The notes: a model not told the origin generated them from the sequence alone. Positions 6,973 through 52,782 are shown, numbered from the stretch's first letter. The stretch: 64,000 nucleotides of DNA from Escherichia coli (GCF_044324785.1 NZ_CP172127.1); one strand, 5' to 3'. A program made the numbers and translations.

Positions 6973-7317
<345 letters not shown>

Positions 7318-12482: not shown

Positions 12483-12487
12483 TGACC

Positions 12488-15327: not shown

Positions 15328-15403
15328 GCCCGGATAGCTCAGTCGGTAGAGCAGGGGATTGAAAATCCCCGTGTCCTTGGTTCGATTCCGAGTCCGGGCA
15401 CCA
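15328..15403 (+). tRNA. pheU: tRNA-Phe (GAA anticodon)
   Basis: exact 76-nt match to the E. coli tRNA-Phe sequence GCCCGGATAGCTCAGTCGGTAGAGCAGGGGATTGAAAATCCCC...GGGCACCA; K-12 position next to yjdC. Confidence 0.97.
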
Positions 15404-15579
15404 CTTTCACTTCCAGATTCATCTCCCGAACTCCACGAAACTCAAGTATAATCACATCGTTACAAGCAATCTGAACATCCTGAACTCCACCGAACTCTAC
15501 TGAACTCTCTCTCAATCAAGCGTTCATTGGGGGCACCGGTGGGGGCTCATTGTGTTCAGTCAGTTTCAGGAGCCCCCAT

Positions 15580-16764: not shown

Positions 16765-16849
16765 TTACACTTTGTCCTGAAATTATTCTCACAATCAATA
16801 ACCTTTCCCTCTGATCTTACAGATCAGAGGGATTCCGTTAACTTACAAT

Positions 16850-16889
16850 AAGTGATATTGGTTGTCTGGAGATTTAGGGGGACGGTCTA
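16850..16889. repeat. solo IS2 terminal inverted repeat (about 40 bp remnant)
   Basis: AAGTGATATTGGTTGTCTGGAGATTTAGGGGGACGGTCTA is near-identical to the IS2 end at 26363-26402, same orientation. Confidence 0.7.
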
Positions 16890-16913
16890 CTATAATAATT
16901 AGCAGGAGATAAT

Positions 16914-17924: not shown

Positions 17925-17944
17925 TTTTTTTATCCAGCTCACAT

Positions 17945-17983
17945 ATCCGAAACGTTTTGGTTGATACCCGAAACGTTTCGGAT
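17945..17983. promoter_or_regulatory. paired palindromic operators (RafR-type) in the rafA promoter
   Basis: two near-identical palindromes CCGAAACGTTTTGG (17947-17960) and CCGAAACGTTTCGG (17968-17981) between rafR and rafA. Confidence 0.7.
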
Positions 17984-18019
17984 CAACAGTAAGGCATCCC
18001 TGAGAAAGGAGAATGTCTT

Positions 18020-20146: not shown

Positions 20147-20208
20147 AGAGAGGTACGGAGCCTCAGCTCCGTCCTGTTTCTCAATATTATCCCGTGAGGG
20201 TAAGAATA

Positions 20209-22916: not shown

Positions 22917-23110
22917 GACATATCGATATCAGTATTTTTTCTGACATTATCTGTCATTACTTTGCCAGTACACATTAATTATCTTTGCTGTGTGCTTTTG
23001 GTAATGTGTTGCGATTATATATACCAGTCTGGTGAAGAATATGAATGGTATTTTGTGTTGATACAGAGAATATAAGAGTACCCACATTTGTTTTTATTTA
23101 AGGGGGTAAA

Positions 23111-24505: not shown

Positions 24506-25005
24506 TGCATAGTAACAAAGTATTGTTCCACACTTACATTAACGCGTTTTTCGGGCGCGTCATCAGCGATGCATACGAATGATCGCAGTCTGCCAATGGT
24601 CGATTTATCTTGGTTGCGCAGGGGCGAGCACCGGGCAGGTACCGGCGGCTGACTCTGAAGCTCTGAGTCGGGTAATTGCGTCAGGTCACGAAGGACTGAC
24701 ACGGGTATTGGTGGCAGGTGATGAAGTACTGAGTGTGGTAATTTCGGGGATGCAATGCAGGAGCTGAGTCAGGTTTGCACTGAGCTGAGGACCCGTAGCG
24801 AGCGGGTTCCTGCTATTTTTCGGTGTCAGGGGCGCAAGTCCCGACGTCGGGACTTGCCGGGAGATTGTCAGGTCATTGACCGGGTGTGAGCGGCTCGACG
24901 TAAGCGGTAGATATGCCCAATTCCCCCCGATAAATTCATTACCAAACACATTATTCAATTTGTTTTTATTTTTCCGCTTTCAGTCATTATCGCTATCGCT
25001 TCGTC

Positions 25006-25071
25006 GGTAATGACTCCAACTTATTGATAGTGTTTTATGTTCAGATAATGCCCGATGACTTTGTCATGCAG
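25006..25071. mobile_element. IS1 terminal fragment (66 bp) truncated by IS2
   Basis: GGTAATGACTCCAACTTATTGATAGTGTTTTATGTTCAGATAATGCCCGATGACTTTGTCATGCAG is identical to the start of the complete IS1 at 27354. Confidence 0.85.
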
Positions 25072-25082
25072 TGGATTTGCCC

Positions 25083-25988
25083 CTATATTTCCAGACACCT
25101 GTTATCACTTAACCCATTACTGGTCCGCTGCCGCAGATATTCCCGTGGCGAGCGATAACCCAGCGCACTATGCGGATGCCATTCGTTATAATGCTCGAAC
25201 GCCTCTGCAAGGTTCTTTGCTGCCGTTAACCCGTCTGGTTTGGGCATGATACTGATGTAGTCACGCTTTATCGTTTTCACGAAGCTCTCTGCTATTCCGT
25301 TACTCTCCGGACTCCGCACCGCCGTGTTCTTCGGTTCAAGTCCCAACATCCGGGCGAACTGGCGTGTTTCATTAGCCCGGTAGCATGAACCATTATCCGT
25401 CAGCCACTCCACTGGAGACGACGGAAGATCGTTGCCGAAGCGGCGTTCCACCGCTCCTGGCATGACGTCCTGTACTGTTTCACTGTTGAAGCCGCCGGTA
25501 GTGACCGCCCAGTGCAGTGCCTCACGATCACAGCAGTCCAGCGCGAACGTGACACGCAGTCTCTCTCCGTTATCACAGCAGAACTCGAACCCGTCAGAGC
25601 ACCATCGCTGATTGCTTTCTTTCACGGCCACTCTGCCAGTATGTGCCCGTTTCGATGGCGGTACAGCGGTTTTTCGCTCAAGCAACAGCGCATTCTGGCG
25701 CATGATCCGGTAAACACGTTTGGCATTGATCGCAGGCATACCATCAAGTTCGGCCTGTCTGCGAAGCAGCGCCCATACCCGACGATAACCATACGTGGGC
25801 AGCTCTCCGATAACATGGTGTATACGGAGAAGCACATCCGTATCATCTGAGTGACGGCTGCGGCGACCATCTTTCCAGTCATCGGTTCGTCTGAGAATTA
25901 CGTGCAACTGCGCACGCGACACCCGGAGACAACGGCTGACTAAGCTTACTCCCCATCCCCGGGCAATAAGGGCGCGTGCGCTATCCAC
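25083..25988 (-). CDS. insD: IS2 transposase InsD (OrfB)
   Basis: 301-aa ORF with DDE integrase-core features, overlapping insC. Confidence 0.9.
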
Positions 25989-26311
25989 TTTTTTGCACGC
26001 CCGTATTCAACGGCTTCTTTAAGGAGTTCATTTTCCATCGTTTTTTTGCCGAGCAGGCGCTGGAGTTCTTTAATCTGCTTCATGGCAGCAGCAAGTTCAG
26101 AGGCAGGAACGACCTGCTCTCCTGCGGCCACAGCAGTAAGACTTCCCTCCTGGTATTGCTTGCGCCAGAGAAATAACTGGCTGGCTGCCACACCGTGTTG
26201 CCGGGCAACAAGGGAGACCGTCATTCCCGGTTCAAAACTCTGCTGAACAATAGCGATCTTTTCCTGTGTAGTACGCCGTCTGCGTTTCTCCGGTCCTAAG
26301 ACATCAATCAT
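25946..26311 (-). CDS. insC: IS2 transposase InsC (OrfA)
   Basis: [56 protein letters not shown]...; the ORF-track start at 26356 is an extension. Confidence 0.9.
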
Positions 26312-26562
26312 CTGCTCTCCAATGACTAGTCTAAAAACTAGTATTAAGACTATCACTTATTTAAGTGATATTGGTTGTCTGGAGATTCATGGGGCCAGTC
26401 TAGCAGATTATGGTGCGCAGTTATACAACAGCAGTAATGAGGAGTCTACTATTTCTCTTGTTATGCCAGATGCAATTGAATGGAACGGAAAGAATACGCC
26501 AAGACGGCAATACATGATAAAATATATTGCCGTATTTAAATATTAAAATTTATTTTTGTAGA

Positions 26563-26970
26563 TCATCTGAATTTTCGGTGACCTTCAAGTTTTATATCGT
26601 TCATTTTATCCAGAGACTCACGTAATGATTCTATATTCCCGTCCTCAACTTTCTTTTTTGCAATATTGATTTCATGTTGTAGTTTTTTTAACTCTTCCTT
26701 ATAACTATCTACAGAAACTTTATCATTAACATCTATCTTTTCAGGAATAATATTCATAGAAGAATCTACAGATTTATCCATCATTTCAAGAGCATTTAAT
26801 AGTGATGATTTATCATTGGAAGATTGTAGAATACTCATACTTTTGGCAAGAGACTGCATGTTTTTATCCAGGCCGGAAGCCAAAGATACGTTGCTGAGAG
26901 ATAAAAAAATAGCTAGTACAGCACCTGAGAAAAATACCTTTTGTTTTTTCATTAATATATTCCTGTTCAA
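26563..26970 (-). CDS. cytochrome b562-family periplasmic protein (putative)
   Basis: 135-aa AT-rich ORF with signal peptide; pattern LDKNMQSL...GHRKFR parallels cytochrome b562 (LEDNMETL...YHQKYR) including candidate Met and His haem ligands. Confidence 0.45.
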   Translation of the reverse strand: MNRNILMKKQKVFFSGAVLAIFLSLSNVSLASGLDKNMQSLAKSMSILQSSNDKSSLLNALEMMDKSVDSSMNIIPEKIDVNDKVSVDSYKEELKKLQHEINIAKKKVEDGNIESLRESLDKMNDIKLEGHRKFR

Positions 26971-27368
26971 AGTTGATTATAGTTATGTCAATTTAAGTTT
27001 ATTATTATGATTTTTTATTTTTGTACTATGAATCTCCTGTATGCTTATATGTGCAGAAAATCTCATTTTATCAAGAAGAATATCAAATTTTCTCCGATAC
27101 TTCTACATACTCCATCATTCATGCTCCTTTTATCCGTGCACCGTAAAACCCCGTCCTTCAGCGGGGGATATAAGGCGCTGTTTTCCACCTAACCAGGTGT
27201 CTGCTGCTATTCAATGTATTGGCGGATGACGGATGCCGCCCGTTGAAGCAGGACCCCTCGTCCTTAGGGCGTGGAGGATGTCAAAATGAAAACTTGTGGT
27301 ATGAATCAATCCATTCATCATCCTTTCGGATCATTGCATTCAGTATAACGCTGGGTAATGACTCCAAC

Positions 27369-27872
27369 TTATTGATAGTGTTTTATGTTCAGATAATGCC
27401 CGATGACTTTGTCATGCAGCTCCACCGATTTTGAGAACGACAGCGACTTCCGTCCCAGCCGTGCCAGGTGCTGCCTCAGATTCAGGTTATGCCGCTCAAT
27501 TCGCTGCGTATATCGCTTGCTGATTACGTGCAGCTTTCCCTTCAGGCGGGATTCATACAGCGGCCAGCCATCCGTCATCCATATCACCACGTCAAAGGGT
27601 GACAGCAGGCTCATAAGACGCCCCAGCGTCGCCATAGTGCGTTCACCGAATACGTGCGCAACAACCGTCTTCCGGAGACTGTCATACGCGTAAAACAGCC
27701 AGCGCTGGCGCGATTTAGCCCCGACATAGCCCCACTGTTCGTCCATTTCCGCGCAGACGATGACGTCACTGCCCGGCTGTATGCGCGAGGTTACCGACTG
27801 CGGCCTGAGTTTTTTAAGTGACGTAAAATCGTGTTGAGGCCAACGCCCATAATGCGTGCACTGGCACGACAT
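27369..27872 (-). CDS. insB: IS1 transposase InsB
   Basis: 167-aa ORF inside IS1. Confidence 0.9.
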
Positions 27873-28066
27873 CCGACGCCATTCATGGCCATATCAATGA
27901 TTTTCTGGTGCGTACCGGGTTGAGAGGCGGTGTAAGTGAACTGTAGTTGCCATGTTTTACGGCAATGAGAGCAGAGATAGCGCTGATGTCCGGCAGTGCT
28001 TTTGCCGTTACGCACCACGCCTTCAGGAGCGGAGCAGGAAGGACATCTGATGGAAATGGAAGCCAC
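27791..28066 (-). CDS. insA: IS1 protein InsA
   Basis: 91-aa [46 protein letters not shown]... with zinc-finger cysteines. Confidence 0.9.
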
Positions 28067-28329
28067 GCAAGCACCTTAAAATCACCATCATACACTAAAT
28101 CAGTAAGTTGGCACCATTACCTGACCAAGCTTCCTCTATTGCGGCACCTGATTGCATCAATATCGAAAGTGATAAGATCCTCTCACTAGCAGGGCATGAC
28201 AAGTGTAACTGCTGATTTGTTAGCCTGTTTTAAGTTTTTTAAGATCAATTATTTCTCATTTTTTGACTTTATTGCTAGCCGTGAAAATGCAAAGCCTATA
28301 GGATACAAAAATTACAATTTGTAGGTTTT

Positions 28330-28836
28330 GTGAGTCATATGAAGGCAACCAATATAGACCCTCAACTGCTTGAAAAAGCCACGAGTATCTTTGCTGAGTT
28401 GGGCTTACCTATTGAGCAGGCTATTAACGTCTTTTTAGCTAAATCCGTTCAAGCCAAAGGTTTTCCGTTTTCTGTTGCTCTTGAAAATGAAGTAGAGACA
28501 CGGGAAGTTGCACAAACGCAACACAATATCAGCAATGCAGAGATAACCGAAGCTATCCAAGACTTGGTTGAACATGCTCTACCACTGAGTGAAATAGAAA
28601 ACCTCACGCAGCTAACCTATTGTCGCAACATTTTTGGGTTGTCATTCCCCGTGCTCAAACTGGCTAAATCATCACGGCCAGAAGACATTCGCAGTGCAGC
28701 CAAAGATGCCAAAGAGCGAAACCGCTACTCCACCACTAAAGTGGCCCAGCGAGATGAAAAAACCTATGTTATTTGCACCCAATGGACCGACAGACATCGT
28801 TCTGCATTTTGCCGTTGGCAAGCCATCTTTAGCTAG
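28330..28836 (+). CDS. RelB/DinJ-like antitoxin-domain protein with C-terminal extension
   Basis: 168-aa ORF; N-terminal 50 aa resemble the DinJ/RelB ribbon-helix-helix (ATSIFAELGLPIEQAINVFLAKSVQAKGFPF); no toxin ORF adjacent. Confidence 0.5.
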   Translation: MSHMKATNIDPQLLEKATSIFAELGLPIEQAINVFLAKSVQAKGFPFSVALENEVETREVAQTQHNISNAEITEAIQDLVEHALPLSEIENLTQLTYCRNIFGLSFPVLKLAKSSRPEDIRSAAKDAKERNRYSTTKVAQRDEKTYVICTQWTDRHRSAFCRWQAIFS

Positions 28837-28902
28837 AACGCAAAATAATAACCAAACAATACACTGATTTTTTAACGATTTAACTTCATTTAGGTAGTAT
28901 CA

Positions 28903-30882
28903 ATGAACTTACAAGACAAAGAACAAAGCGCCAAACTCTCCAGTGCTATTTGGCGTATGGCAGATGATTTATGGGGTGATTTCAAACACACCGATTTTGC
29001 GCGGATTATCCTGCCATTTTTGCTACTGCGTCGTATTGAATGCGTGTTAGAACCCACCCGTGAGGAAGTTCGTAAGTTCTATCTGGCCGAAAAACAATCC
29101 GGCATAGACCTTGGTTTAGTGTTGCCAGAAATTGCGGGATTCGCCTTTTACAACACCAGTGAATATAGCCTAGAAACCTTAGGCGCGTCAGACACCGGCG
29201 ACAACCTAGAACACTACATCAGCCAGTTCAGCAAAAACGTTCGTACCATCTTTGATGAGTTTAAATTTGGTCAAACCATAGAAGATCTGGAAAAAGCCAA
29301 GTTGCTGTATCGCATGGTAAACCATTTTGCCAACCTCGACTTGCATCCTGATGTAGTGTCTGACCGCGTATTATCAGATGCTTATGAAGAGCTGATTCTA
29401 AAGTTCGCCAGTTCGGTTAATGAAAAGGCCGGGGAATTTATGACCCCGCGTGATGCCGTGCGTCTTGCCACCAAACTGGTGCTGGCGGCGGATGAAGATA
29501 TCTTTAGTGAAAAGGGTGTGATCCGCACCATCTATGACCCAACCTGTGGCACGGGCGGTTTCCTTTCCGATGCCATTAGCCAAATTGAAGAAATGGGCAG
29601 CAGCGCTAAAGTCGTGCCTTTTGGTCAAGAGCTCGACCCCGCGACCCATGCCATGGCGCTGACCAATATGATGATCCGCGGTTTTGATGCCAATAACATC
29701 AAGCAAGGCAACACCTTATCAGACGATCAGTTACGTGCCGACAAGTTTCACTACGGCCTTGCCAACCCGCCATTTGGCATTAAGTGGGAAAAAGCCAAGA
29801 AAGAAGTAGAACGTGAGCACAAACAGCTCAAATACGCCGGACGCTTTGGGCCAGGCCTGCCGAGTATTTCTGATGGTTCAATGCTGTTTTTACTGCACTT
29901 GGTATCAAAAATGGAAACGCCGGAAAATGGTGGTGGCCGAGTGGGTATAGTCCTTTCTGGCTCGCCACTGTTTAATGGCGATGCAGGCTCAGGCCCATCA
30001 GAAATCCGCCGTTGGCTGCTAGAACAAGACTTAGTCGAAGCGATTGTTGCCCTGCCAACCGATATGTTCTTCAACACCGGCATTGGCACCTACATCTGGA
30101 TTTTGACTAACCATAAAGAGCCAAGACGCAAGAATCAGGTGCAACTGATTAACTTGGCAGATATTTGGACTCCCATGCGTAAATCGCAAGGCGATAAGCG
30201 CAAGTACCTGAGTGATGAACAGATTGACGATATTGTCCGTGCGTACGATGGCTTTGAAGCCAGTGACAACTGTAAGATCTTCCAGACTACTGATTTTGCC
30301 TACCGTAAAGTCACCATTCAGCGTCCACTGCGTGCCAAACTAGATATTACCGCTGCGGGCATTGCTGCATTTGTGCAGCAAGATACGTTTAAAAAACTCA
30401 AACCAGAGCAACAAGCGGCATGGGTACAATACCTCACCGATAACCTTGGCCTTCAGCCTTATGAATGGGCACGTTTGGCGGTTAAGAAGAATAACAATAA
30501 GGGTGACTTTGGTAAGTGCTCAAAAGCACTGGCTACGGCCTTAACTGCGCACTTTGTAAAAATTGATCCGCAATTTGAGCCTGCACTGGATGAAAAAGGC
30601 CAAGTGATCGCCGACCCTAAACTCAAAGACACCGAAAGCATTCCTTTTGACCGCGACGTTGAAGATTACTTCGCACAAGAGGTGCTGCCACATGTACCGG
30701 ATGCCTTTATTGATCACTCAGTGCGTGATGAAAAAGACGGCGAAGTGGGCATTGTCGGTTATGAAATTAACTTTAACCGCTATTTCTACCAATACGTGCC
30801 ACCACGCGAGTTGAGTGTGATTGATCGTGAGCTAAAAGCATGTGAAGCGCGCATTCAGGCTCTGCTGAATGAGGTGGCGTAA
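28903..30882 (+). CDS. hsdM: type I restriction-modification system, DNA methyltransferase subunit
   Basis: 659-aa ORF with AdoMet motif DPTCGTGGFL and catalytic NPPFG; TAATG overlap with hsdS. Confidence 0.9.
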   Translation: MNLQDKEQSAKLSSAIWRMADDLWGDFKHTDFARIILPFLLLRRIECVLEPTREEVRKFYLAEKQSGIDLGLVLPEIAGFAFYNTSEYSLETLGASDTGDNLEHYISQFSKNVRTIFDEFKFGQTIEDLEKAKLLYRMVNHFANLDLHPDVVSDRVLSDAYEELILKFASSVNEKAGEFMTPRDAVRLATKLVLAADEDIFSEKGVIRTIYDPTCGTGGFLSDAISQIEEMGSSAKVVPFGQELDPATHAMALTNMMIRGFDANNIKQGNTLSDDQLRADKFHYGLANPPFGIKWEKAKKEVEREHKQLKYAGRFGPGLPSISDGSMLFLLHLVSKMETPENGGGRVGIVLSGSPLFNGDAGSGPSEIRRWLLEQDLVEAIVALPTDMFFNTGIGTYIWILTNHKEPRRKNQVQLINLADIWTPMRKSQGDKRKYLSDEQIDDIVRAYDGFEASDNCKIFQTTDFAYRKVTIQRPLRAKLDITAAGIAAFVQQDTFKKLKPEQQAAWVQYLTDNLGLQPYEWARLAVKKNNNKGDFGKCSKALATALTAHFVKIDPQFEPALDEKGQVIADPKLKDTESIPFDRDVEDYFAQEVLPHVPDAFIDHSVRDEKDGEVGIVGYEINFNRYFYQYVPPRELSVIDRELKACEARIQALLNEVA

Positions 30883-32168
30883 TGAATGCTGGCAACATAG
30901 TAGATGCTTTCGTATCTGACTCGAAATGGAACTCAGTACCAGCTAAACGTTTATTTACGAGTAGCAAAGAAATCAATCAAGGAATGAAAGAATCTAATCG
31001 TCTTGCACTAACAATGAAAGGTGTCATAAACCGCTCGTTAGACGATTTACAAGGACTTCAATCTTCTGATTACTCTGTTTATCAGATTTTTGAAAAAGAT
31101 GACTTAGTTTTTAAGCTCATAGATCTTGAAAATATAAAGACTAGCCGAGTGGGGATTGTGCATGAACGAGGAATAATGAGCCCTGCATACATCCGTGTTT
31201 CAGCGAGTTCAAATAGCATCTACCCAAGGTTCTATTACTGGTACTTTTTTGCTCTATACCTAACCAATATTTATAACAAACTGGGTGGAGGAGTTCGTCA
31301 GAACCTAACAGCTGGTGATCTTTTAGAAATACCTGTTCCACTGATTGATATTTCATTACAGAAGCAGGTTAGCACATTCCTTGATCGCGAAACCCAGCGC
31401 ATCGACAGTCTGATCGAGGAAAAGCAGACCTTTATTAAGCTGCTCAAAGAAAAACGCCAAGCACTGATCAGCCATGTGGTCACAAAGGGGCTCTATCCCA
31501 ATGTGGAGATGCAGGACTCTGGCATCGAGTGGATTGGGCAAGTGCCGAAGCATTGGGAAGTCAAAAAGATAAAGCATATTTGCTCCAACTTTATGTATGG
31601 AACCTCTCAAGACTGTAACCAGTCTGATGTTGGCTATCCTGTTCTCAGGATACCAAACATCAAGAGTACCAATGTTGATTTTGAAGATCTCAAATATGCA
31701 AATATCAGTGATGTTGATGCTTTAACTTATCTTTTATCAAGAGGCGACATTTTAGTCATCAGAACTAACGGTAACCCTAATCTGGTCGGCCAAAGCGCGC
31801 TTTTTGATTCAAATGGGCAGTATTTATTTGCGTCGTACCTAATAAAGTTAACACCAAAGCAAGGAGTGGATACTAGCTTCTTAGTGGAAGCGATGAACTC
31901 ACTATCTGTTCGTCAAGCATTAACATTTCAGTCAAGAACATCGGTAGGTAACTACAACCTGAGCATTCCTTCACTAGCTAATACAAGTATTGCTATCCCA
32001 CCAATTGATGAGCAAAAGACAATAACGAATTACTTGAGTGCAGCAACGATAAACATTGATTTACTGATTCAAGAGACTGATAAATCGATTGATCTTCTAA
32101 AAGAACACCGCACATCGCTGATCAACGCGGCTGTCACAGGAAAAATAGACGTCAGGGAGGCGGTGTAA
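30882..32168 (+). CDS. hsdS: type I restriction-modification system, specificity subunit
   Basis: 428-aa ORF with two-TRD architecture and conserved central and C-terminal repeats (SLIEEKQTFIKLLKEKRQALISHVVTKG / LLKEHRTSLINAAVTGKIDV). Confidence 0.88.
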   Translation: MNAGNIVDAFVSDSKWNSVPAKRLFTSSKEINQGMKESNRLALTMKGVINRSLDDLQGLQSSDYSVYQIFEKDDLVFKLIDLENIKTSRVGIVHERGIMSPAYIRVSASSNSIYPRFYYWYFFALYLTNIYNKLGGGVRQNLTAGDLLEIPVPLIDISLQKQVSTFLDRETQRIDSLIEEKQTFIKLLKEKRQALISHVVTKGLYPNVEMQDSGIEWIGQVPKHWEVKKIKHICSNFMYGTSQDCNQSDVGYPVLRIPNIKSTNVDFEDLKYANISDVDALTYLLSRGDILVIRTNGNPNLVGQSALFDSNGQYLFASYLIKLTPKQGVDTSFLVEAMNSLSVRQALTFQSRTSVGNYNLSIPSLANTSIAIPPIDEQKTITNYLSAATINIDLLIQETDKSIDLLKEHRTSLINAAVTGKIDVREAV

Positions 32169-35100
32169 TGGCTGCACATCATGAAGTGCATTTTGAACAA
32201 TATATTACCGAGCAGTTGGTGAACAATGGCTGGAAAGAAGGCCATTCCTGCCACTATGACCAGCAACGCGCCCTTTACCCGCAAGATGTCATGGATTGGG
32301 TAAAGGCCACCCAGCCAGATGCCTGGCACAAACTGAATAAACTGCATGGTGTGAATGCCGAGCAGGTGCTGTTGGAGCGTTTGGAAAAAGCCCTCTCTTC
32401 CCACAAAGCTGGCAGTAAAACAGGTGGCACCATTAATGTGCTGCGTAAAGGCTTTACCATTGCAGGTTGCGGCACGATTGCCATGGGCCAACGCAAACCC
32501 GAAGATGCGCGCAATGAAGAGCGTATAGCCCGTTATGAGCACAACATTTTGCGCGTGGTGCGCCAACTGAAATATTGCCCGACTCGCGAGTGGGAAATTG
32601 ACTTGGTGTTCTTTATCAACGGTCTACCCGTTGCCACCGCCGAGCTAAAAACCGATTTTACCCAGTCGCTAGAATCGGCGATTGCGCAGTACAAAGAGGA
32701 TCGTCTGCCCGTTGACCCAAAAACCAAGCGTAAAGAGCCGCTGTTAACCTTTAAACGCGGTGCAGTGGTACATTTTGCCATGTCTGATACAGAAATCGCC
32801 ATGGCGACCAAACTGGCGGGAGAAAATACCTATTTTCTGCCCTTCAATAAAGGCCATGATGGTTCTACCTCTGATTTGCCCGTACACATCAACTTGCCGG
32901 GTGAAGATGGAGAGTATCCGGTCAGCTATTTTTGGCAAGAAATTGCCCAAAAAGATAATTGGCTACGCATTTTCTACAGCTTTGTGTATGTCGAAACCAA
33001 AGAGGTTGCCGATAGCAATGGCAAGGTTGAGCGTAAGGAAACACAGATTTTTCCGCGTTATCATCAGTTAGCCGCAGTCAACAAGATGATTGATGATGCC
33101 CGCCAGAACGGCGCAGGCATGCAGTATCTTTGTGAGCACAGCGCCGGTTCGGGAAAAACCTCTACCATAGCCTGGACGGCCCATGATTTGATTCGTTTAC
33201 GCAGCACCGATGGTAAAGCGGTCTTTAAATCAGTGATCATTGTGACCGACCGCACCGTGCTGGATTCGCAGTTGCAAGATGCGGTGCAACAGCTGGATCA
33301 TCAATATGGGGTGATTAAGGTGATTGATCGCGAAAAGAGCAGCGAGTCGAAATCAAAACAGCTGACTGAAGCGCTATTGACTGGCACGCCGATCATTGTA
33401 GTGACGATTCAAACCTTCCCATATGCGTTAGAAGCGATTCTGACCAATCAATCTTTGGCACAAAGTAACTTTGCGGTGATCATCGATGAAGCACACACCT
33501 CGCAAACAGGCTCTACAGCCAAAGGGTTACGCGCAGCGCTTACTCTAAACCTTAGCCCTCAAGAGTTGGAGCAAATGAGCATTGAGGACATTCTTACTAA
33601 GGTGCAAGAAGCGCGCGCCATGCCCAAGAACGTTTCGCACTTTGCTTTTACGGCAACACCCAAGCACAGCACCAAGATGTTGTTTGGCCGCCCGAAAGAC
33701 CCTAACCAACCAGTGTCAGATGACAATCTTCCTGAATCGTTCCACCTCTACACCCAACGTCAGGCCATTGATGAGGGTTTTATTCTTGATGTGCTGGAGA
33801 ATTACACCCACTACGATACAGCCTACAAAATTGGTGAGAACAATCTGGATGAGAAGCGCGTAGACAGCAAACAAGCTCGCCGCGCGTTGGCGCGCTGGAT
33901 GTCACTGCACCCAACCACGGTCAGCCAAAAAGTCGAATTTATTATTAAGCACTTCAAGGCCAATATCGCTCACCTACTGGAAGGTGAAGCCAAAGCCATG
34001 GTGGTCACATCGGGCAGGCCACAGGCGGTGAAATACAAGCTTGCTTTTGATAAATACATTAAAAAGCATGGTATTGAAGGTATCCAAGCCTTGGTTGCCT
34101 TCTCGGGCAAAGTCCCCGGCAAAGATTTGGGTGATGAAGACAGCCAAGACCCGCTAGAAATTGATTTCGATAAAGAGTACACCGAGTACAACTTAAACCC
34201 AGACACGCACGGGGCTGACCTGCGCCATGAGTTTGAGAAAACCGAATATCGCGTCATGTTAGTCGCCAACAAGTTCCAAACGGGCTTTAATCAACCAAAA
34301 CTGGTTGCCATGTATTTGGATAAGAAAATATCCGATGTAGAAGCGGTGCAAACGCTGTCTCGCCTAAACCGCACCTATCCAGGCAAAGACACAACCTTCG
34401 TGATTGATTTTGTTAACGATCCACAAACCATTCTCAATGCGTTCAAAAAGTACGACAAAGGCGCGCAGCTTAATGAAGTGCAAGATGTGAACGTCATCTA
34501 TGACATCAAAGATATTTTGGATGAACAGAACATATACAACCATCAAGATTTAGAGTTGTTTAAGCAAGCGCGTGGTAAATCGATTCTCGGCCAATCACCT
34601 GACAAAAAGTCACACGCGCACAAGAAACTGCTAGCTGCCACACAACGCCCTACCGATGTGTTCAACGTTAAGCTCAAAGAGCTGGTTGATGCTGCAAACC
34701 ATTGGGATCAGCAATACAACAAAGCGCACCTTGCGGGTGATGAAAAAGCGGCGAACTACGCAGAATCTCAGCGCAGTGATTTCACCAAGCAGCGCGAAGC
34801 ACTAATGCGTTTTAAGTCAGATTTAGCTCGATTTGTGAAGCACTATAGCTATATGGCGCAATTGATTGAGTTTGGTGATCCTGAACTGGAAAACTTTGCC
34901 GCGTTTGCTCATTTGCTATCACGTCGATTGAAAGGGGTAACACCAGAAAACATCGATCTCAGTGCACTGGTACTAGAAAAATTCAAAATCAAATACGACA
35001 AAGAGCCGCTTCCAGAAGCGTTTAATCAGGTACTTGAACCTATCCGCCCCAACTATAACGACCCTGCGGATCGTGAACAGGCATTTCTTGCCGATATCAT

Positions 35101-35404
35101 TCGCCGCCTAAACGAACTGTTTGGCGATGTCGGCGACGAACCCGGTCGCCGAAACTTTGCCAACGGTACTATTACGCGTGTCACCCAAAATCCAATTGTG
35201 GTTGAGCAGATAGAAAAGCACGACAAGTCGATTGCCCTCAAAGGCGACTTGCCGCAAGCGGTGAAGCAAGCCGTTGTGCAGGCTCTGCTGAAAGAAGGTG
35301 ATATAGCCCGAACGCTACTCAAAGACCCACAAGTTATGGCAAGTTATGTTGAGTTGATTTTTGACATGATGAAGCAAGGTGCAGAACAGGCGGCGGTGAA
35401 ATAA
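32168..35404 (+). CDS. hsdR: type I restriction-modification system, restriction endonuclease/helicase subunit
   Basis: 1078-aa ORF with Walker A (SAGSGKT), DEAH-like VIIDEAH and helicase motifs; TAATG overlaps on both sides. Confidence 0.9.
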   Translation: MAAHHEVHFEQYITEQLVNNGWKEGHSCHYDQQRALYPQDVMDWVKATQPDAWHKLNKLHGVNAEQVLLERLEKALSSHKAGSKTGGTINVLRKGFTIAGCGTIAMGQRKPEDARNEERIARYEHNILRVVRQLKYCPTREWEIDLVFFINGLPVATAELKTDFTQSLESAIAQYKEDRLPVDPKTKRKEPLLTFKRGAVVHFAMSDTEIAMATKLAGENTYFLPFNKGHDGSTSDLPVHINLPGEDGEYPVSYFWQEIAQKDNWLRIFYSFVYVETKEVADSNGKVERKETQIFPRYHQLAAVNKMIDDARQNGAGMQYLCEHSAGSGKTSTIAWTAHDLIRLRSTDGKAVFKSVIIVTDRTVLDSQLQDAVQQLDHQYGVIKVIDREKSSESKSKQLTEALLTGTPIIVVTIQTFPYALEAILTNQSLAQSNFAVIIDEAHTSQTGSTAKGLRAALTLNLSPQELEQMSIEDILTKVQEARAMPKNVSHFAFTATPKHSTKMLFGRPKDPNQPVSDDNLPESFHLYTQRQAIDEGFILDVLENYTHYDTAYKIGENNLDEKRVDSKQARRALARWMSLHPTTVSQKVEFIIKHFKANIAHLLEGEAKAMVVTSGRPQAVKYKLAFDKYIKKHGIEGIQALVAFSGKVPGKDLGDEDSQDPLEIDFDKEYTEYNLNPDTHGADLRHEFEKTEYRVMLVANKFQTGFNQPKLVAMYLDKKISDVEAVQTLSRLNRTYPGKDTTFVIDFVNDPQTILNAFKKYDKGAQLNEVQDVNVIYDIKDILDEQNIYNHQDLELFKQARGKSILGQSPDKKSHAHKKLLAATQRPTDVFNVKLKELVDAANHWDQQYNKAHLAGDEKAANYAESQRSDFTKQREALMRFKSDLARFVKHYSYMAQLIEFGDPELENFAAFAHLLSRRLKGVTPENIDLSALVLEKFKIKYDKEPLPEAFNQVLEPIRPNYNDPADREQAFLADIIRRLNELFGDVGDEPGRRNFANGTITRVTQNPIVVEQIEKHDKSIALKGDLPQAVKQAVVQALLKEGDIARTLLKDPQVMASYVELIFDMMKQGAEQAAVK

Positions 35405-35958
35405 TGAATACTGCGTTTCGGGTTTTACTTACGTTCAATGCAACATCACTACTAGTGATTATCTTTGCGGTACAAAAAGGGTACTCACTCGGATATTTCT
35501 TTGGTGGTTTCGCTTGCTTCGATTGGATAGCAGCACTTCCGAACGCAGTATCATATTTACTCTATTTTCTTATCCCTGTTTTATCGACTGGATTGAGTAT
35601 TTGGCTGAGTAAGTATTTGGGTAAAGACGATTTTAAGGCGGGTGAAGTAGCGAGTATTGAGCATGCCAATAACAGCTTCCTACCAAGTTATTTGGGTTAC
35701 TTTTTCGTGGCGTTGAGCATTGGTAACTGGGAGACATTGTGGTTTGTTTATGGCGTTTTGTTTGTTTTTACTCTCTTATCGCAAGCACTCTACTTTAACC
35801 CATTGTTTTTACTGTTTGGTTATGAGTTTTATAACATTACAACCAAAAACGGAACGGCCATTTTCCTTATTAGCCGAGAGCGCTACAAGAAGCCAGATGA
35901 CATCGAAATATCATTGGCTTATCGAATCAATAATTACACATTTATCGAGCGAGGATAA
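35404..35958 (+). CDS. uncharacterised predicted membrane protein (about 4 TM), candidate defence-system component
   Basis: 184-aa ORF with four hydrophobic segments; start codon overlaps the hsdR stop (TAATG) and its own stop overlaps the next gene. Confidence 0.6.
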   Translation: MNTAFRVLLTFNATSLLVIIFAVQKGYSLGYFFGGFACFDWIAALPNAVSYLLYFLIPVLSTGLSIWLSKYLGKDDFKAGEVASIEHANNSFLPSYLGYFFVALSIGNWETLWFVYGVLFVFTLLSQALYFNPLFLLFGYEFYNITTKNGTAIFLISRERYKKPDDIEISLAYRINNYTFIERG

Positions 35959-36800
35959 TGATGGACCATGTACTGGCACATATAAAAACTAGAGCAAAAA
36001 AACGCATTTTCAAATTGGTTTCTGATCAATCTCTTTTTGATACCGTCACAATCGACTTAAATGCCTGTATTCCATACAATCCAGACCATAACCTTGACGA
36101 AGACTCATGGTTTAAAATTGAAGACTTTAGTCAAAAAGAGTTTTGTATTGAACTGCTAAAAAAAGACTATGATTCAAAAGACTACGATGACTTAACCAAA
36201 GATAACTTCGCCAAGATCGCCTACTTATTTGCAATTCAAGGTAATGATTTTTACTTTCAAAAAATCACTCCAAGCCTATTCGTAAAACGCAAAACGCTTG
36301 TTTTTGGTGAAGCCGCAGAAATTGAGAAGAGCCAAACACGTTTAGTAATAAACGCCTTACCTGATGCAGTGTACTTCAAAGTGGCCGATACCTTGATATT
36401 CAAAAATCTGGCAACGATCTCGAGCATTTTTAAAGGTATCGATGAGTTGTACAAGGAAGCAACAAAAGAAGAAGTTGAGCAGTTTTTAGATGCACAGTTT
36501 ATAGAGTTGGGTAATGACTACAACGTAGATAGCGTCTCAAAACCTAATAGAAAACGTATTGGCCTTGCTATGGCAACACTTGATGCGATGTCTGCTGACG
36601 ATAAAGCTAACATGCTTGATTATATCGACGGTTACTGCGGTGAACAGAAGCTGAAATTCGATAAAGAAAATCAGAAGTTTGAAATATCTAATGACGATGA
36701 GTTGAAGTTACTGCTTTATGGCATTGAACAACGCTTCTATACGACCCCGTTTGGCAAAGAAAAAAGGCTCGCTAACTCTGTAACCGCTATGGATAAATAA
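35958..36800 (+). CDS. uncharacterised 280-aa soluble protein, candidate defence-system component
   Basis: translationally coupled to the upstream membrane-protein gene (TAATG); AT-rich; no motif recognised by eye. Confidence 0.6.
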   Translation: MMDHVLAHIKTRAKKRIFKLVSDQSLFDTVTIDLNACIPYNPDHNLDEDSWFKIEDFSQKEFCIELLKKDYDSKDYDDLTKDNFAKIAYLFAIQGNDFYFQKITPSLFVKRKTLVFGEAAEIEKSQTRLVINALPDAVYFKVADTLIFKNLATISSIFKGIDELYKEATKEEVEQFLDAQFIELGNDYNVDSVSKPNRKRIGLAMATLDAMSADDKANMLDYIDGYCGEQKLKFDKENQKFEISNDDELKLLLYGIEQRFYTTPFGKEKRLANSVTAMDK

Positions 36801-36820
36801 TAGCCCATTATCAGTAACAT

Positions 36821-37870
36821 ATGAAGGTTGATTCAATGGCCGATAACATCCCACAAGCTCCTCAAGGTGAGTTTGTTCTTTTCACCAGTGCTGATGGTCA
36901 AACCCGCGTTGAGTGTCGTTTTGAGTCTGACACCTTGTGGCTTTCTCAGGCTGCAATGGCAGAGCTTTATCAAGTTAGCTCTCAAGCAATCACCCAACAC
37001 GTAAAAGCTGTCTATTCTGAAGAAGAGCTTGAGCAAATTTCAACTTGTAAGGATTACTTACAAGTTCAACTGGAAGGTGGCAGAGAAGTAAAGCGAAGCA
37101 TTCGTCACTACAGTCTTCCGGTTATTCTTGCAGTAGGATACCGAGTTCGCTCAACACGTGGCACCCAGTTCCGCCAATGGGCAACCAGAATGTTGCAAGA
37201 ATACCTAATCAAAGGATTCGTCATGGATGACGAGCGCCTGAAAAATCCGCCCATTGGCCATTCTGCTGTGCCAGATTACTTTGATGAAATGCTGGAACGC
37301 ATTCGTGATATCCGAGCTAGTGAGCGTCGCGTTTATCTGCGAGTCAAAGAAATCTTTACCATGGCTGCTGATTACGAGCCATCTAACCAAGAGACCAACC
37401 GCTTCTTCCAAACCATTCAGAATAAGCTGCATTATGCTTGTACGCATATGACGGCTGCTGAGCTTATCGCCAGCCGTGTGGATGCCAGTAAGCCGGATAT
37501 GGGCTTAACCAGCTATAAAGGCGATGAAGTGCGCAAGACAGACGTTACTGTTGCCAAGAACTATTTGCGTGAAGACGAAATCAAAGAGCTTAATCGCATC
37601 GTCAATATGTGGCTCGACTTTGCTGAAGACCAAGCACTGCGTCGCAAGCAGGTATTTTTACAGGACTGGGCCGATAAGCTTGACCAGTTCTTGAGTTTTA
37701 ACGATAGAGATGTATTAAACGGTGCAGGAAAAATCTCCAAGAAAGACGCTGATGACAAAGCGAAATTGGAGTTTGACCGCTTTGCCCAGCAGCGCCGTCG
37801 TTTAAAAGAAGCCGAAGGCGCACGGGCCAATATCGCAGCCCTCAAGGCCATACTAAAAAAAGATAAATAG
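36821..37870 (+). CDS. RhuM-family virulence/defence-island protein
   Basis: 349-aa ORF; N-terminal region (FTSADGQTRVECRFESDTLWLSQAAMAELYQVSSQAITQHVKAVY...VAYRVRSTRGTQFRQWATRMLQEYLIKGF) is typical of the RhuM family. Confidence 0.7.
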   Translation: MKVDSMADNIPQAPQGEFVLFTSADGQTRVECRFESDTLWLSQAAMAELYQVSSQAITQHVKAVYSEEELEQISTCKDYLQVQLEGGREVKRSIRHYSLPVILAVGYRVRSTRGTQFRQWATRMLQEYLIKGFVMDDERLKNPPIGHSAVPDYFDEMLERIRDIRASERRVYLRVKEIFTMAADYEPSNQETNRFFQTIQNKLHYACTHMTAAELIASRVDASKPDMGLTSYKGDEVRKTDVTVAKNYLREDEIKELNRIVNMWLDFAEDQALRRKQVFLQDWADKLDQFLSFNDRDVLNGAGKISKKDADDKAKLEFDRFAQQRRRLKEAEGARANIAALKAILKKDK

Positions 37871-37927
37871 CCGATATAGTACAGCCCTGATCTCTAATGA
37901 GTTGAGGGCTGTGTTGTAAGATCATAA

Positions 37928-38314
37928 CTATAAAGGATTATCCATCTTAAAATCGTCGATATCGCCTGTCATTTTGAATAGATTGGTGTCATTCCAACGG
38001 CACAGTTGTCTAACCCGCATTAGATTTGAGTTGGCTCTGCGGATTATTGAGAAAGCATCTTCAACAGCAGTAATCACCGATTTTTCCCAATCTTGTGCTC
38101 GGGTAAAGGTGCTTTGTGAATAGCGATAATTGCCCTCACGGGGGAGGTAATGGCTGATCACCTGGTATTTGTCAGAATTCTTTTTAGGTTTAAACTCGTT
38201 GTAAACCCAGAAAATTTCGAGTTTTTTGTTTCTTTGCCTTACACGACAACCAAAATGACCTGGGTAGCCTTCAGAGTTTTTACCTCTATGTGCAACGTTG
38301 TTCAGCCAGAACAA
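37928..38314 (-). CDS. hypothetical protein (start uncertain)
   Basis: 128-aa AT-rich ORF between the RhuM gene and an IS3-family element. Confidence 0.35.
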   Translation of the reverse strand: MFWLNNVAHRGKNSEGYPGHFGCRVRQRNKKLEIFWVYNEFKPKKNSDKYQVISHYLPREGNYRYSQSTFTRAQDWEKSVITAVEDAFSIIRRANSNLMRVRQLCRWNDTNLFKMTGDIDDFKMDNPL

Positions 38315-38403
38315 GTCTGCAATTTTTTGTGCTATGTAGAAGTAGCGGAGCTGTTCTATTTCGGTTGATTTATGGGTGTAGTGTAGATATTGCTCTGATA
38401 TGG

Positions 38404-38604
38404 TTAAGGAAAAAGCATTGCGTCGTCTTGATTAACATTTGTGCTATTGACAATAAAGGTTTCCCAAATATTAATTTGTGTTTCTAGTCCTTTAAATGAT
38501 TTTGAGAAGGCTTCTATGTACTCAGATTGCGGTTGATTTCCCCCATTTAGTGCTGCACCAAATGTAGCTATCTGTTGTTCTAAAAATGAATGATTTTTGG
38601 TCAT
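38404..38604 (-). CDS. hypothetical small protein
   Basis: 67-aa ORF from MTKNHSFLEQQ...; the longer ORF-track version runs into the IS terminal repeat. Confidence 0.3.
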   Translation of the reverse strand: MTKNHSFLEQQIATFGAALNGGNQPQSEYIEAFSKSFKGLETQINIWETFIVNSTNVNQDDAMLFP

Positions 38605-38682
38605 TACATAATCCTCTGTGTGGTTGATACTGCGTATTTTCATGAAAGGAGATCACTCAATAACCCCCCTGTGTCAGCATAG

Positions 38683-39225
38683 TTGTCGCCTCAATTTTTT
38701 AAGGAGATAACAATGCCAGGACAACCAATACCAAATGAGCTCAAAGAAAAAGGACTGATATGGCTTTTGCCACCATACTGTTGGTCACACCGTCAGATAG
38801 CCCGGAAGCTGAAGATCAGTGCCTCAGTTGTATCAAAATGGAGATGTGAGTTAGTGGAGCAAGGACTTTTACCTGAAAATGAAAAGATTACCTCCGTTGA
38901 TGTTGAAGACTGGACACCGGAGCGTCGATTCTCAGTTGTTCTTGAGACGGCTACGCTGTCAGAAATGGAACTTGCTGATTATTGCCGACGCATGGGATTG
39001 TTTGTTGAACAGGTTAAAGAATGGCGGGCTATCTCAATTCAGGCGCATGAAAAGAAATTGACGGAAAATATCCGAACAGACAGGGCATTGCGTGACGCAA
39101 AAAATAAGTTACGAGAACTGGAGAAAGAGCTTAAGCGCAAAGATAAAGCTCTGGCGGAAGCAGCTGCCCTGCTTATATTAAGGGAAAAGTTCAATGCCCT
39201 CTGGGACAACAGCGAGGAAGACTGA
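38683..39225 (+). CDS. IS3-family transposase OrfA (HTH, leucine-zipper-like C-terminus)
   Basis: 180-aa ORF with HTH and coiled-coil (LRELEKELKRKDKALAEAAALLILREKF). Confidence 0.7.
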   Translation: MSPQFFKEITMPGQPIPNELKEKGLIWLLPPYCWSHRQIARKLKISASVVSKWRCELVEQGLLPENEKITSVDVEDWTPERRFSVVLETATLSEMELADYCRRMGLFVEQVKEWRAISIQAHEKKLTENIRTDRALRDAKNKLRELEKELKRKDKALAEAAALLILREKFNALWDNSEED

Positions 39226-40252
39226 CCCCTCTCCTGGAGCGGCATAAAATTATTTCTCTTGTCCGTGAGGCCGTCGCCAACGGCGCCCGGAAAGGTCAGG
39301 CTTGTAGGTGTATCGGTATTTCTATTCGGACACTTCAGCGCTGGACTAATGGCAACATCATCACCACGGACCGAAGATCCGATACTGTAAACAGCTCTCC
39401 CCGAAATAAGCTGTCAGAAGCGGAAAGATTGCGAATACTGGAGTTGTGCAACTCTCCAGAGTTTGCATCCTTGCCTCCAAATGTGATCGTACCAACTCTG
39501 GCAGACAGAGGTATTTATATTGCTTCTGAATCAAGTTTTTATCGTGTACTGAAATCAGCCAAGCAGTTGAAGAAACGATCCCGTGAATGCCAGTATAAAC
39601 TGGCCTGATGTACTCAGGGCCGTTGCACCGAATCAAGTCTGGAGTTGGGACATCAGCTATTTGCCGTCCTGGGTCAGAGGCCAGCATTTTTACCTCTATA
39701 TGATCGTCGATATTTACAGTCGCAAAATTATTGCTGCTGAGGTATTTGCCAGCGAATCTGGAAAACATGCAGCAGAACTACTCCAGCGTGCAGTATGGAA
39801 TGAAAAATGTTCATCCAACAATCTGGTACTCCATTCTGATAACGGTGGTCCCATGCGCAGTGACACGTTGTTGGCGAAAATGTATGCGCTTGGTGTGCTA
39901 AGTTCTTATTCCCGGCCAAGAGTCAGTAATGATAATCCTTACTCAGAATCTTTGTTCCGGACTCTCAAATATTGTCCCTGGTGGCCTGAGAACGGTTTTC
40001 GCACTATTGATGATGCCAGAGTATGGGTAAACCAGTTTTGTAAACTGGTACAACTTTGAACATAAGCACAGCGGGATCAAATACGTCACGCCAGCCGAGC
40101 GTCATCAAGGTAATGATATGAAAATACTGGCGGCCAGAAAAGCAGTATACCAGCTGGCACGCGAACAGCATCCTGAACGTTGGGGAAAGCATCTACGTAA
40201 CTGGGACTACATATCAGAAGTCTACCTGAATCCAGAAAAAGAGGCTGCATAA
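39226..40252 (+). pseudogene. IS3-family transposase OrfB (DDE integrase core), at least two frameshifts
   Basis: pieces in three frames: ...RTLQRWTNG.../...PNQVWSWDISYLPSW...HSDNGGPM...YSRPRVSNDNPYSESLFRTLK.../...NFEHKHSGIKYVTPAERHQ... Confidence 0.75.
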
Positions 40253-40328
40253 CGTAATTTTATTACAAAAGGCGACAACTACCTTGAAAAACGCCGTTAT
40301 TGAGTGATCTCCTTTCATGAAAATACGC

Positions 40329-40870
40329 ACCATGACCATACCCTCTGCAACCTGACCATCGTAGTCACGCAGCGTCAGTGAACCTCCGAACAACTGTTTT
40401 ACCCGGTACATCGCTGTTTCCGCTATCGAACGACGGTTATAATCTGTTGTCCATTTACACCGGGCATTACTTCCGGTCAGCCGCTGATTAGCCACTGCAC
40501 GGTTACGGTCTTCGTATTCACCGGGCTAGTAACCCGCACCTTTTCGGGAAGGGGTAAGCGCGCTGATTTTCTTACGCCTCAGTTCATCGTGACAGAGTCG
40601 GGGGTCGTAAGCCCCGTCTACCGCTGCAGCCATGATTTTTCTGTGAGTCTGTTGGAGAAGCCCCGGGAAGGCTTCTGAGTCCGTGACGTTGTTCAGCGAC
40701 AGGTCTGCACAGACAATTTCATGTGTGTTGCCATCAACAGACAGATGCGACGCCCCTCTTTGCCGTGCTTTTTGGCTTTCCTTTCGCCTTCCCCAAAGAC
40801 TTTTAGCCCGTTGGAATCAATCACGAGGTGTATGATTTCACCCCGGGTGGGGATTTATGTATAAGAAACA
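40329..40870 (-). pseudogene. IS5-family (IS903-like) transposase fragment, truncated by the IS3-family element
   Basis: minus-strand translation contains ...NRAVANQRLTGSNARCKWTTDYNRRSIAETAMYRVKQLFGGSLTLRDYDGQVAEGMVM and upstream frameshifted pieces; ends exactly at the IS3-family element boundary. Confidence 0.6.
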
Positions 40871-48780: not shown

Positions 48781-48795
48781 ACCAACGTTTTTATG
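48770..48795. promoter_or_regulatory. candidate gix/cix-like crossover site 2
   Basis: reverse complement CATAAAAACG-TT-GGTTTGGGGGAAGG, inverted relative to site 1; lies between the tail-fibre stop and cassette B. Confidence 0.5.
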
Positions 48796-52728: not shown

Positions 52729-52782
52729 GGGGGCAGTATTGCCCCCGTGCGGGAACGCTGATATTAAAGGCGTTTAAAAAGC

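Follow-up and report, generated by a model that had tools for sequence, protein, structure and literature searches.

A stretch of Escherichia coli DNA of 64,000 nt (GCF_044324785.1, NZ_CP172127.1; here called the window) contains, between an insertion sequence (IS) of the IS1 type and one of the IS3 family, a block of 10,509 bp (28122-38630) that carries a RelB/DinJ-like gene, a type I restriction-modification (R-M) operon, two genes related to the Kiwa defence system, a rhuM family gene and the remains of a mobilisation gene, mobI (Table 1). With a probability of roughly 80%, we read this block as the stranded cargo end of a genomic island of the MGIVchHai6 type, encoding one defence unit made up of restriction and Kiwa-like functions. 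An earlier note on this DNA, drawn from the sequence alone, had described the block as an IS-bounded defence island. All of the open reading frames (ORFs) it listed are present in the sequence, and its picture of dense packing with defence genes holds for the type I R-M genes, the Kiwa-like pair and rhuM, but not for two small genes on the minus strand, which belong to mobI.

The two coupled genes behind hsdR, left as unknowns in the earlier note, are predicted by matches to PADLOC models and by a fold comparison to be a very divergent KwaA/KwaB (Kiwa) pair. The 184-aa protein matched the PADLOC KwaA model at 9.3e-16, with residues 2-182 covering profile positions 3-170 of 173; its NCBIfam KwaA match (1e-5) was under the cut-off and the Pfam match (PF28043) was weak. 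In a hydropathy scan, three hydrophobic regions of this protein exceeded the threshold and a fourth (~residues 92-110) was apparent by eye only, with a beta-rich C-terminus after the hydrophobic segments. This is consistent with a multi-pass membrane protein, four helices not being established by the scan. For the 280-aa protein, the PADLOC KwaB model gave 7e-14 (50 bits), and an AlphaFold model built on the family alignment (pLDDT 92.6) had six significant Foldseek matches in the PDB, all of which were KwaB chains (9mtn, 9mrx and 9nyu; E 1e-6 to 2e-5, query-normalised TM-score 0.61-0.66, ~11% identity), the next match having an E value of 0.6. Pfam KwaB was reached at E <=0.001 by two of 55 members of the KwaB-like family and was the sole recurrent family among them. 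The pairing itself is conserved: of 79 related loci, 76 have an ORF labelled kwaA-like immediately before kwaB-like; in two of the three exceptions the contig ends there, and the third (L087) has no labelled kwaA ORF.

Canonical Kiwa has been described as a stand-alone two-gene system. Its membrane complex of KwaA tetramers and KwaB dimers reacts when the membrane is disturbed as phage DNA is ejected or during conjugation; KwaB then binds DNA, blocks replication and late transcription, and is itself bound and inhibited by the DNA mimic Gam (PMC11785009). As references we used the systems of E. coli O55:H7 and ECOR8/12/49 together with the three PDB entries above. The pair in the window resembles them in consisting of two adjacent genes, for a small multi-pass membrane protein and then a soluble protein of ~300 aa, in matching both PADLOC models, and in a predicted fold that matches only solved KwaB. 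It differs in the length of the KwaB-like protein (280 aa versus 315-327 aa in canonical KwaB), in the low identity to solved KwaB, in forming a large separate family (534 clusters at 50% identity) and in its usual place at the 3' end of, or inside, restriction operons.

The assignment has to be weighed against the alternative that these are an unrelated membrane and soluble protein, the KwaB-like fold being convergent or a modelling artefact. Several results tell against Kiwa: the 280-aa protein has no Pfam hit of its own, DUF4868 (PF16162) included; a profile of the 55 family sequences found no KwaB in the PDB by sequence, though canonical KwaB structures are present there; hhalign of the profile against one canonical KwaB sequence gave no match; and the KwaB assignment rests mainly on one structural comparison at 11% identity. 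PDB sequence searches with the single KwaA-like and KwaB-like proteins yielded nothing useful. The profile-to-single-sequence comparison made with hhalign is too insensitive at such divergence, and the fold search was taken as decisive instead. An unrelated pair would also have to account for matches to two independent PADLOC models over nearly full length, for a weak KwaA signal that recurs in Pfam and NCBIfam, for the family members that reach Pfam KwaB, for six fold matches of which every one is KwaB, for a gene order, sizes and membrane-then-soluble architecture as in Kiwa, and for a canonical Kiwa that occupies the same slot within a type I operon (see below). Because fold, architecture and PADLOC models agree, we treat the pair as a divergent Kiwa and regard the unrelated-pair explanation as very unlikely.

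We also noted that NCBI records name the KwaB-like protein (35958-36800; homologues P0001-P0120) "ATP F0F1 synthase synthase", a label that searches of the protein do not support and that is a propagated misannotation. Some E. coli have a further Kiwa near the block, this one canonical, with a KwaA of 202 aa and a KwaB of 327 aa. It was seen in L002 (where it is split), L008 and L009, at ~18.4-20.0 kb of each locus and ~6-8 kb beyond the block on its downstream side, so that two very different Kiwa systems lie close together in these strains.

In type I R-M, an HsdM2S complex methylates a bipartite site set by HsdS, and HsdR2M2S translocates along unmodified DNA and cuts it. The hsdM, hsdS and hsdR genes upstream of the Kiwa-like pair are intact. 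HsdM matched the PADLOC model MTase_I PDLC03029 (661 positions) end to end at 1.9e-243, and thus its 659 aa, which had been thought unusually long, are a normal length for the subfamily; its Pfam domains are HsdM_N and N6_Mtase, and type I M subunits are its relatives in the PDB. For HsdS, PADLOC Specificity_I (4e-97, residues 14-427) and Pfam Methylase_S indicate two target-recognition domains; it aligned with Plesiomonas and Vibrio alleles in the central conserved region only, as is to be expected where target-recognition domains have been swapped. HsdR combines an N-terminal nuclease domain with an SF2 translocase (Pfam HSDR_N, ResIII, SWI2_SNF2 and T1R_D3-like; PADLOC REase_I 2.6e-30). Its score against TIGR00348 (166 bits) is under the cut-off, which places it in a divergent subfamily, and a sequence search found no PDB relative. 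Over residues 995-1073 (35150-35386), HsdR has a weak match (9e-6) to the C-terminal end of PDC-S15, a PADLOC candidate; no domain is otherwise assigned to its last ~300 residues.

The restriction genes and the Kiwa-like genes follow one another as if in a single operon. All four junctions (hsdM/hsdS, hsdS/hsdR, hsdR/kwaA and kwaA/kwaB) are TAATG stop/start overlaps, a pattern that points to translational coupling of the five genes. A gap of 35 bp separates kwaB from rhuM, whose product was rightly placed in the RhuM family by the earlier note (Pfam Virulence_RhuM PF13310; PADLOC candidate PDC-S05, 8e-167, for which a defence role is a candidate annotation only). The hairpin between rhuM and the convergent mobI is probably a bidirectional terminator. 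We would expect the plus strand to form one defence transcription unit running from the ribbon-helix-helix (RHH) leader through hsdM, hsdS, hsdR, kwaA-like and kwaB-like to rhuM. Against this, scans for consensus promoters and terminators returned fewer sites than shuffled controls and were uninformative on transcription units. On balance, we lean towards a single RHH-controlled transcript that would make both systems in fixed proportion, as a methylation-dependent and a methylation-independent layer. The predicted type I enzyme, if active, would methylate the cell's own DNA at the HsdS site and cleave unmodified incoming DNA. The Kiwa-like pair would form a membrane complex in which KwaA senses DNA entry and KwaB binds the invading DNA, providing a second layer that does not depend on methylation and whose amount would be tied to that of the restriction enzyme.

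The link to restriction is recurrent. A search with 14 closer KwaB-like sequences gave a sample of 80 loci, each from a different species-representative genome, in which ORFs were labelled by local phmmer and HMM searches seeded with Hsd, Kwa and other proteins; arrangements were counted in the 65 loci with >=2.5 kb of upstream sequence. The kwaA-like gene directly followed hsdS in 22 and hsdR in 13 of them, and in another four (L072, L075, L086 and L092) the pair lay between hsdS and hsdR, giving the order M-S-kwaAB-R. In sum, 39 of the 65 loci, each of a different species, have the Kiwa-like pair immediately after a type I operon or within it, mostly with a gap of -4 or -1 nt. These loci come from Gamma- and Betaproteobacteria, Desulfobacterota, Bacteroidota and one Ignavibacteriaceae metagenome-assembled genome. 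Type I genes were near but non-adjacent in five loci and not detected near kwaAB in 21. Other genes upstream of the pair encode type III R-M (L089), a type IIG enzyme (L080), a type IV-like enzyme (L078), a Dcm/McrBC-like system in which Dcm comes with a DUF2357/PDDEXK_7 protein (L010 and L028), Lamassu (L103), PDC-S06 (L097) or SoFic (L031), and several loci have no recognisable defence neighbour. Since restriction genes were not seen beside kwaAB in about one third of the related loci, the linkage is frequent but not obligatory.

Across the pair, E. coli keeps ~80% DNA identity to Vibrio, Shewanella and Aeromonas, but the restriction systems that precede it have nothing in common; kwaAB thus behaves as a conserved anchor beside an exchangeable restriction slot. 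The slot after kwaB varies as well (compared in L010-L014, L018-L020, L051 and window 36800-37870): E. coli, Plesiomonas, Aliiglaciecola, Dysgonomonas and some Vibrio have rhuM there, Vibrio, Shewanella and Pseudoalteromonas have DarT-DarG, and Aeromonas has a gene of no assigned function with Fic. In L025, L026, L028 and L094, as in Plesiomonas, rhuM stands directly after kwaB.

As a control, we looked at five contexts of canonical, Pfam-positive Kiwa, of which four were stand-alone and one was inside a type I operon (L109, Arcobacter roscoffensis, 2628-11038), in the order hsdM-hsdS-kwaA-kwaB-(307 aa)-hsdR. Type I embedding is therefore not exclusive to the divergent clade, but it looks far more frequent there than in canonical Kiwa, judged by this small control of five contexts. 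The neighbourhood analysis in the Kiwa preprint concerns mobile elements only and leaves restriction linkage unmentioned (PMC11785009). No report of a Kiwa-restriction operon fusion was found in the main text of the preprint (supplementary tables aside) or in open-access full-text searches, and literature searches on RhuM as a defence gene, on Kiwa with type I restriction and on DUF4868 turned up no paper that describes the fusion.

Such neighbourhoods raise the question of whether the Kiwa-like pair, instead of being an independent neighbour, serves the restriction enzyme as a dedicated accessory. A precedent is PrrC, an anticodon nuclease whose gene is embedded in the type Ic R-M operon of EcoprrI. 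In both cases, a type I R-M operon includes a second defence function, within it or as its last part, and the order M-S-X-R is shared by the four Kiwa-like loci named above and by the canonical Kiwa of L109. They differ in that the proteins are unrelated, binding or monitoring of a restriction enzyme by the Kiwa-like pair being only hypothetical. As an accessory, the pair could act as a guard, set off when anti-restriction DNA mimics block restriction, like PrrC for EcoprrI, or it could anchor the restriction complex in the membrane where DNA enters. Such coupling would fit the overlap with the last restriction gene in most loci across several phyla, the three type I gene orders that keep the pair attached (M-S-kwaAB-R being the prrC slot), and the conservation of the pair while the restriction system is swapped; the binding and inhibition of canonical KwaB by Gam means that an interface for DNA mimics exists in the family. 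However, the 21 loci without detectable type I genes include several without any restriction genes, canonical Kiwa works as a two-gene system on its own (PMC11785009), and tight packing and overlaps are common in the cargo of small mobile islands and imply no interaction. We consider a dedicated accessory role doubtful and retain the reading of two layers made side by side.

The two small minus-strand genes, which had been counted as unknown defence genes, together make up a single mobilisation gene, mobI, broken by a frameshift: ORFs of 66 and 128 aa that align in successive frames to an intact MobI of 197 aa from Plesiomonas. In MGIVchHai6-type islands, which are mobilised by IncC plasmids, mobI is part of an int-xis-86-85-ig(oriT)-mobI layout (Rivard et al., 2020, PMC7449626), and most trmE group A islands carry type I R-M (PMC7449626). 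Window 28193-38432 has 88-90% DNA identity to three Plesiomonas loci (L015-L017), the target-recognition domains of HsdS excepted. In Plesiomonas shigelloides, the order is resolvase, relB-like, hsdMSR, kwaAB, rhuM, intact mobI and an intergenic region, followed by AlpA-like, DUF927, helix-turn-helix (HTH) and integrase genes and trmE. At the left end of the block, this homology stops 71 bp from IS1. Related kwaAB pairs are found in islands at dusA (Aeromonas, with MobI) and yicC (Vibrio) that encode MobI or an integrase, and KwaB-like proteins 82-95% identical to the one in the window occur in Plesiomonas, Aeromonas, Shewanella, Vibrio, Alteromonas and Proteus, a breadth of hosts typical of mobile-element cargo.

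From these comparisons, the block appears to be a fragment of a trmE-type mobilisable genomic island. It shares with the MGIVchHai6/GIPmi1 family a MobI homologue beside the cargo and a type I R-M system, the typical cargo of trmE group A, and its close relative in Plesiomonas has the full layout of mobI, oriT region, 85/86, xis, int and trmE. The E. coli copy differs in having no int, xis, 85/86 or oriT region, in its frameshifted mobI, and in lying not at trmE but between insertion sequences in an island at pheU or pheV. The int-xis-86-85-oriT module is absent from the window. Only 26 bp separate the mobI ATG from the IS3-family element on its upstream side, and the position of this element accounts for the loss of the oriT region, 85/86, xis and int. 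For want of this module, the window holds a fragment and not a functional member of the MGIVchHai6 type. One observation weighs against taking the Plesiomonas island as the direct donor: over the last 200 bp before IS3, where mobI has its 5' end, the two sequences do not align. In two related E. coli loci (L002 and L008), a further IS3-like element lies inside the mobI remnant (12256-13424; window ~38140), which is further decay of the mobilisation gene; RefSeq names an IS1203-family transposase in hit H1.

Both borders of the block were read directly. The IS1-type terminal repeats delimit a complete element of 768 bp ending at 28121, as the earlier note had it, and IS1 Pfam domains lie at the matching position in all related E. 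coli loci. The IS3-family element was likewise recognised correctly, but it starts at 38631, one base before the position first given; its transposase is frameshifted (IS3 transposase HMM and RefSeq annotation). Neither element is flanked by a target-site duplication, neither the 9 bp of IS1 (flanks ATAACGCTG versus TGACCAAGC) nor the 3 bp of the IS3-family element (TAC versus CCA). The block is AT-rich relative to the backbone, as had been proposed, with 44.3% GC compared to 50.4% upstream of the tRNA gene and 47.0% in the left part of the island; the lowest values (37-39%) are those of kwaA, kwaB and the mobI region. The only tRNA gene of the window is tRNA-Phe (15328-15403), and since dcuA, dsbD and yjdC/dicD precede it, the site is pheU, in agreement with the earlier note.

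The block was found once per genome in 76 of 5426 complete E. coli genomes (~1.4%), with >=99% identity in 75. It was always a single piece; the lack of conserved linkage that the earlier note had named as refuting its reading was thus not seen. A comparison of nine E. coli loci showed common sequence between 27354, where IS1 has its outer end, and 40296, a position within the IS3 element. Left of IS1 there are at least four differing sequences (cytochrome b562, a sulfatase with an outer-membrane protein, a pterin-binding enzyme, and an autotransporter), and homology between the contexts begins at IS1, whose junction with the block is constant. This fits an adjacent deletion or inversion mediated by IS1, or recombination between IS1 copies. 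The window has the island at pheU, whereas strains 1517k and PKF4 have all of it (integrase, raf genes, IS2, cybC, IS1 and block) at pheV, between speC and yqgA. With the whole island common to both copies, the two locations would be explained by exchange between the identical tRNA-Phe genes, either homologous or mediated by the integrase. The idea that the block had arisen inside the pheU island is not borne out, given its likeness to a trmE-type island and the same composite island at pheV elsewhere, while the variable left flank, the constant IS1-block junction and the lack of target duplications bear out the IS-mediated rearrangement that had been suggested.

Since an IS1-block-IS3 unit (27354-40296) occurs in several genomic contexts, the block could alternatively be a composite transposon, transferred whole from site to site, pheU and pheV among them. 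However, the two insertion sequences are of different families (IS1 and IS3), the IS3 transposase is frameshifted, and there is no target-site duplication at either element or around the unit. Homology ends at 40296, before the right repeat of IS3, which fits recombination or deletion, and what the pheU and pheV copies have in common is the whole island, integrase and raf genes included. The constant inner junction, the varying outer neighbours and the lack of target duplications argue for deletion, inversion or recombination at IS1 and not for composite transposition, which we rejected as extremely unlikely. Under our preferred reading, the cargo end of an MGIVchHai6-type island would have been captured in the E. 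coli pheU/pheV island and then severed on both sides, with IS1 taking the place of the sequence to the left, the IS3-family element removing oriT, 85/86, xis and int beyond mobI, and the frameshift in mobI following the IS3-linked loss. Cut by IS on both sides and with a frameshifted mobI, the block is an immobile remnant, whose inheritance or movement would depend solely on the host island and on IS or homologous recombination.

The first gene of the block encodes a protein whose residues 5-67 match Pfam RelB (5e-5), as a ribbon-helix-helix domain, and whose NCBIfam RelB_DinJ score (41 bits) is under the cut-off of 45.65. No toxin partner (RelE/YafQ family) is adjacent in any of the four contexts examined; the earlier note was right about the missing toxin, but an orphan antitoxin, as the DinJ-like gene might have been taken to be, was rejected on these grounds, homologues leading unrelated defence operons. 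In contrast to RelB/DinJ type II antitoxins, the toxin-binding tail is replaced by a domain of ~100 aa that is strongly conserved in an alignment of 29 homologues. Its AlphaFold model (pLDDT ~90) had no matching fold among PDB structures.

The family is small (53 clusters, all Gammaproteobacteria), and homologues with 55-70% identity are the first gene of differing defence-type operons: the gene that follows is hsdM in the window and encodes an SNF2 helicase or an AAA_15 ATPase in homologous loci. In Vibrio parahaemolyticus (L021/L022, 9001-9498), the stop codon of the leader overlaps the start of a helicase in an operon for SNF2 helicase, DUF4391, N6/N4 methylase, AAA_15/DUF4276 and ResIII endonuclease; in Aeromonas (L023/L024), the leader heads genes for an AAA_15/DUF3696 ATPase, a small protein and an RNA ligase. 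A core of the palindrome upstream of the gene, ATACAAA..TTACAA-N-TTGTAGG, is kept in front of the leader in all three operon types (E. coli/Plesiomonas, V. parahaemolyticus and Aeromonas), and we infer that the palindrome is a candidate promoter and operator.

Small DNA-binding proteins encoded by the first gene of many defence operons are known from BrxR/CapW of the WYL family. The RelB-like family is similar in heading type I R-M with Kiwa, SNF2/methylase/ResIII and AAA_15/RNA-ligase clusters together with a palindrome. It differs in having an RHH N-domain in place of winged HTH-WYL, a C-domain without known fold, and a small, gammaproteobacterial distribution, its regulatory role being predicted. 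The protein is probably a ribbon-helix-helix leader regulator and may be an autoregulated one, which would travel with and control the defence operon that follows.

Table 1. Features of the block and its two bounding insertion sequences (positions in the window).
Feature	Position	Strand	Remarks
IS1, complete, 768 bp	27354..28121	-	Left edge of block; insA/insB ORFs
Palindrome ACAAAAATTACAA-T-TTGTAGGTTTTGT, 13+13	28305..28331		8 nt upstream of relB-like ATG; overlaps -10-like TACAAT
RelB/DinJ-like gene, 165 aa	28339..28836	+	N-terminal ribbon-helix-helix and conserved C-terminal domain
hsdM, type I methyltransferase subunit, 659 aa	28903..30882	+	PADLOC, Pfam
hsdS, specificity subunit, 428 aa	30882..32168	+	Start overlaps hsdM stop (TAATG)
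hsdR, restriction/translocase subunit, 1078 aa	32168..35404	+	Start overlaps hsdS stop (TAATG)
kwaA-like membrane protein, 184 aa	35404..35958	+	Start overlaps hsdR stop (TAATG)
kwaB-like protein, 280 aa	35958..36800	+	Start overlaps kwaA stop (TAATG)
rhuM family gene, 344 aa	36836..37870	+	Alternative start 36821 (349 aa)
Hairpin, 8-bp stem (ACAGCCCT...AGGGCTGT)	37881..37912		Between convergent rhuM and mobI; read from sequence
mobI pseudogene	37928..38604	-	Frameshift near 38400-38415; two ORFs
mobI C-terminal ORF, 128 aa	37928..38314	-	Pfam MobI PF19456; RefSeq MobI(A/C)
mobI N-terminal ORF, 66 aa	38404..38604	-	Aligns to N-terminus of Plesiomonas MobI
IS3-family element, 1699 bp	38631..40329	+	Right edge of block; perfect 34-bp inverted repeats

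Elsewhere in the window, the left part of the island (15550-27353) carries a P4-type integrase and a raffinose/sucrose utilisation cluster (regulator-like binding protein, alpha-galactosidase, MFS transporter, GH32 hydrolase and porin), followed by IS2 and cytochrome b562. A region of 55-60% GC on the minus strand (48791-61667) encodes phage-tail-like proteins (tape measure, VgrG-related, baseplate-like and tail-tube-like) and is probably a prophage or tailocin region without relation to the defence block. The IS3-family element of the window, like that of L001 and L005, lacks 44 bp (window 38953-38960) that are kept in L002-L004 and L006-L009; two alleles of this degenerate element are circulating.

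The island as such is unremarkable: it is what decay has left of a member of a described mobilisable family, caught between insertion sequences. PADLOC models recognise most genes of the block, which is poorly annotated in the 76 RefSeq genomes, and several public labels can be corrected, with the KwaB-like protein given as "hypothetical", the leader as "antitoxin" and the broken mobI as two genes. What goes beyond the known picture is the divergence of the Kiwa clade, its systematic fusion to restriction operons and the shared RHH leader. It is possible, if at present improbable, that the divergent clade (~275-aa KwaB) constitutes a restriction-associated module that is regularly translated from one message with type I, and sometimes type III, IIG or IV, restriction genes and serves them as a guard or membrane platform, and that the RHH leaders are a new family of regulators. 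If the linkage between restriction and Kiwa reflects cooperation, it would be a new case of layered or guarded immunity. The RelB-like leader, placed with its conserved palindrome at the head of unrelated defence operons, suggests that the defence cargo of mobile islands has a portable cassette for its regulation.

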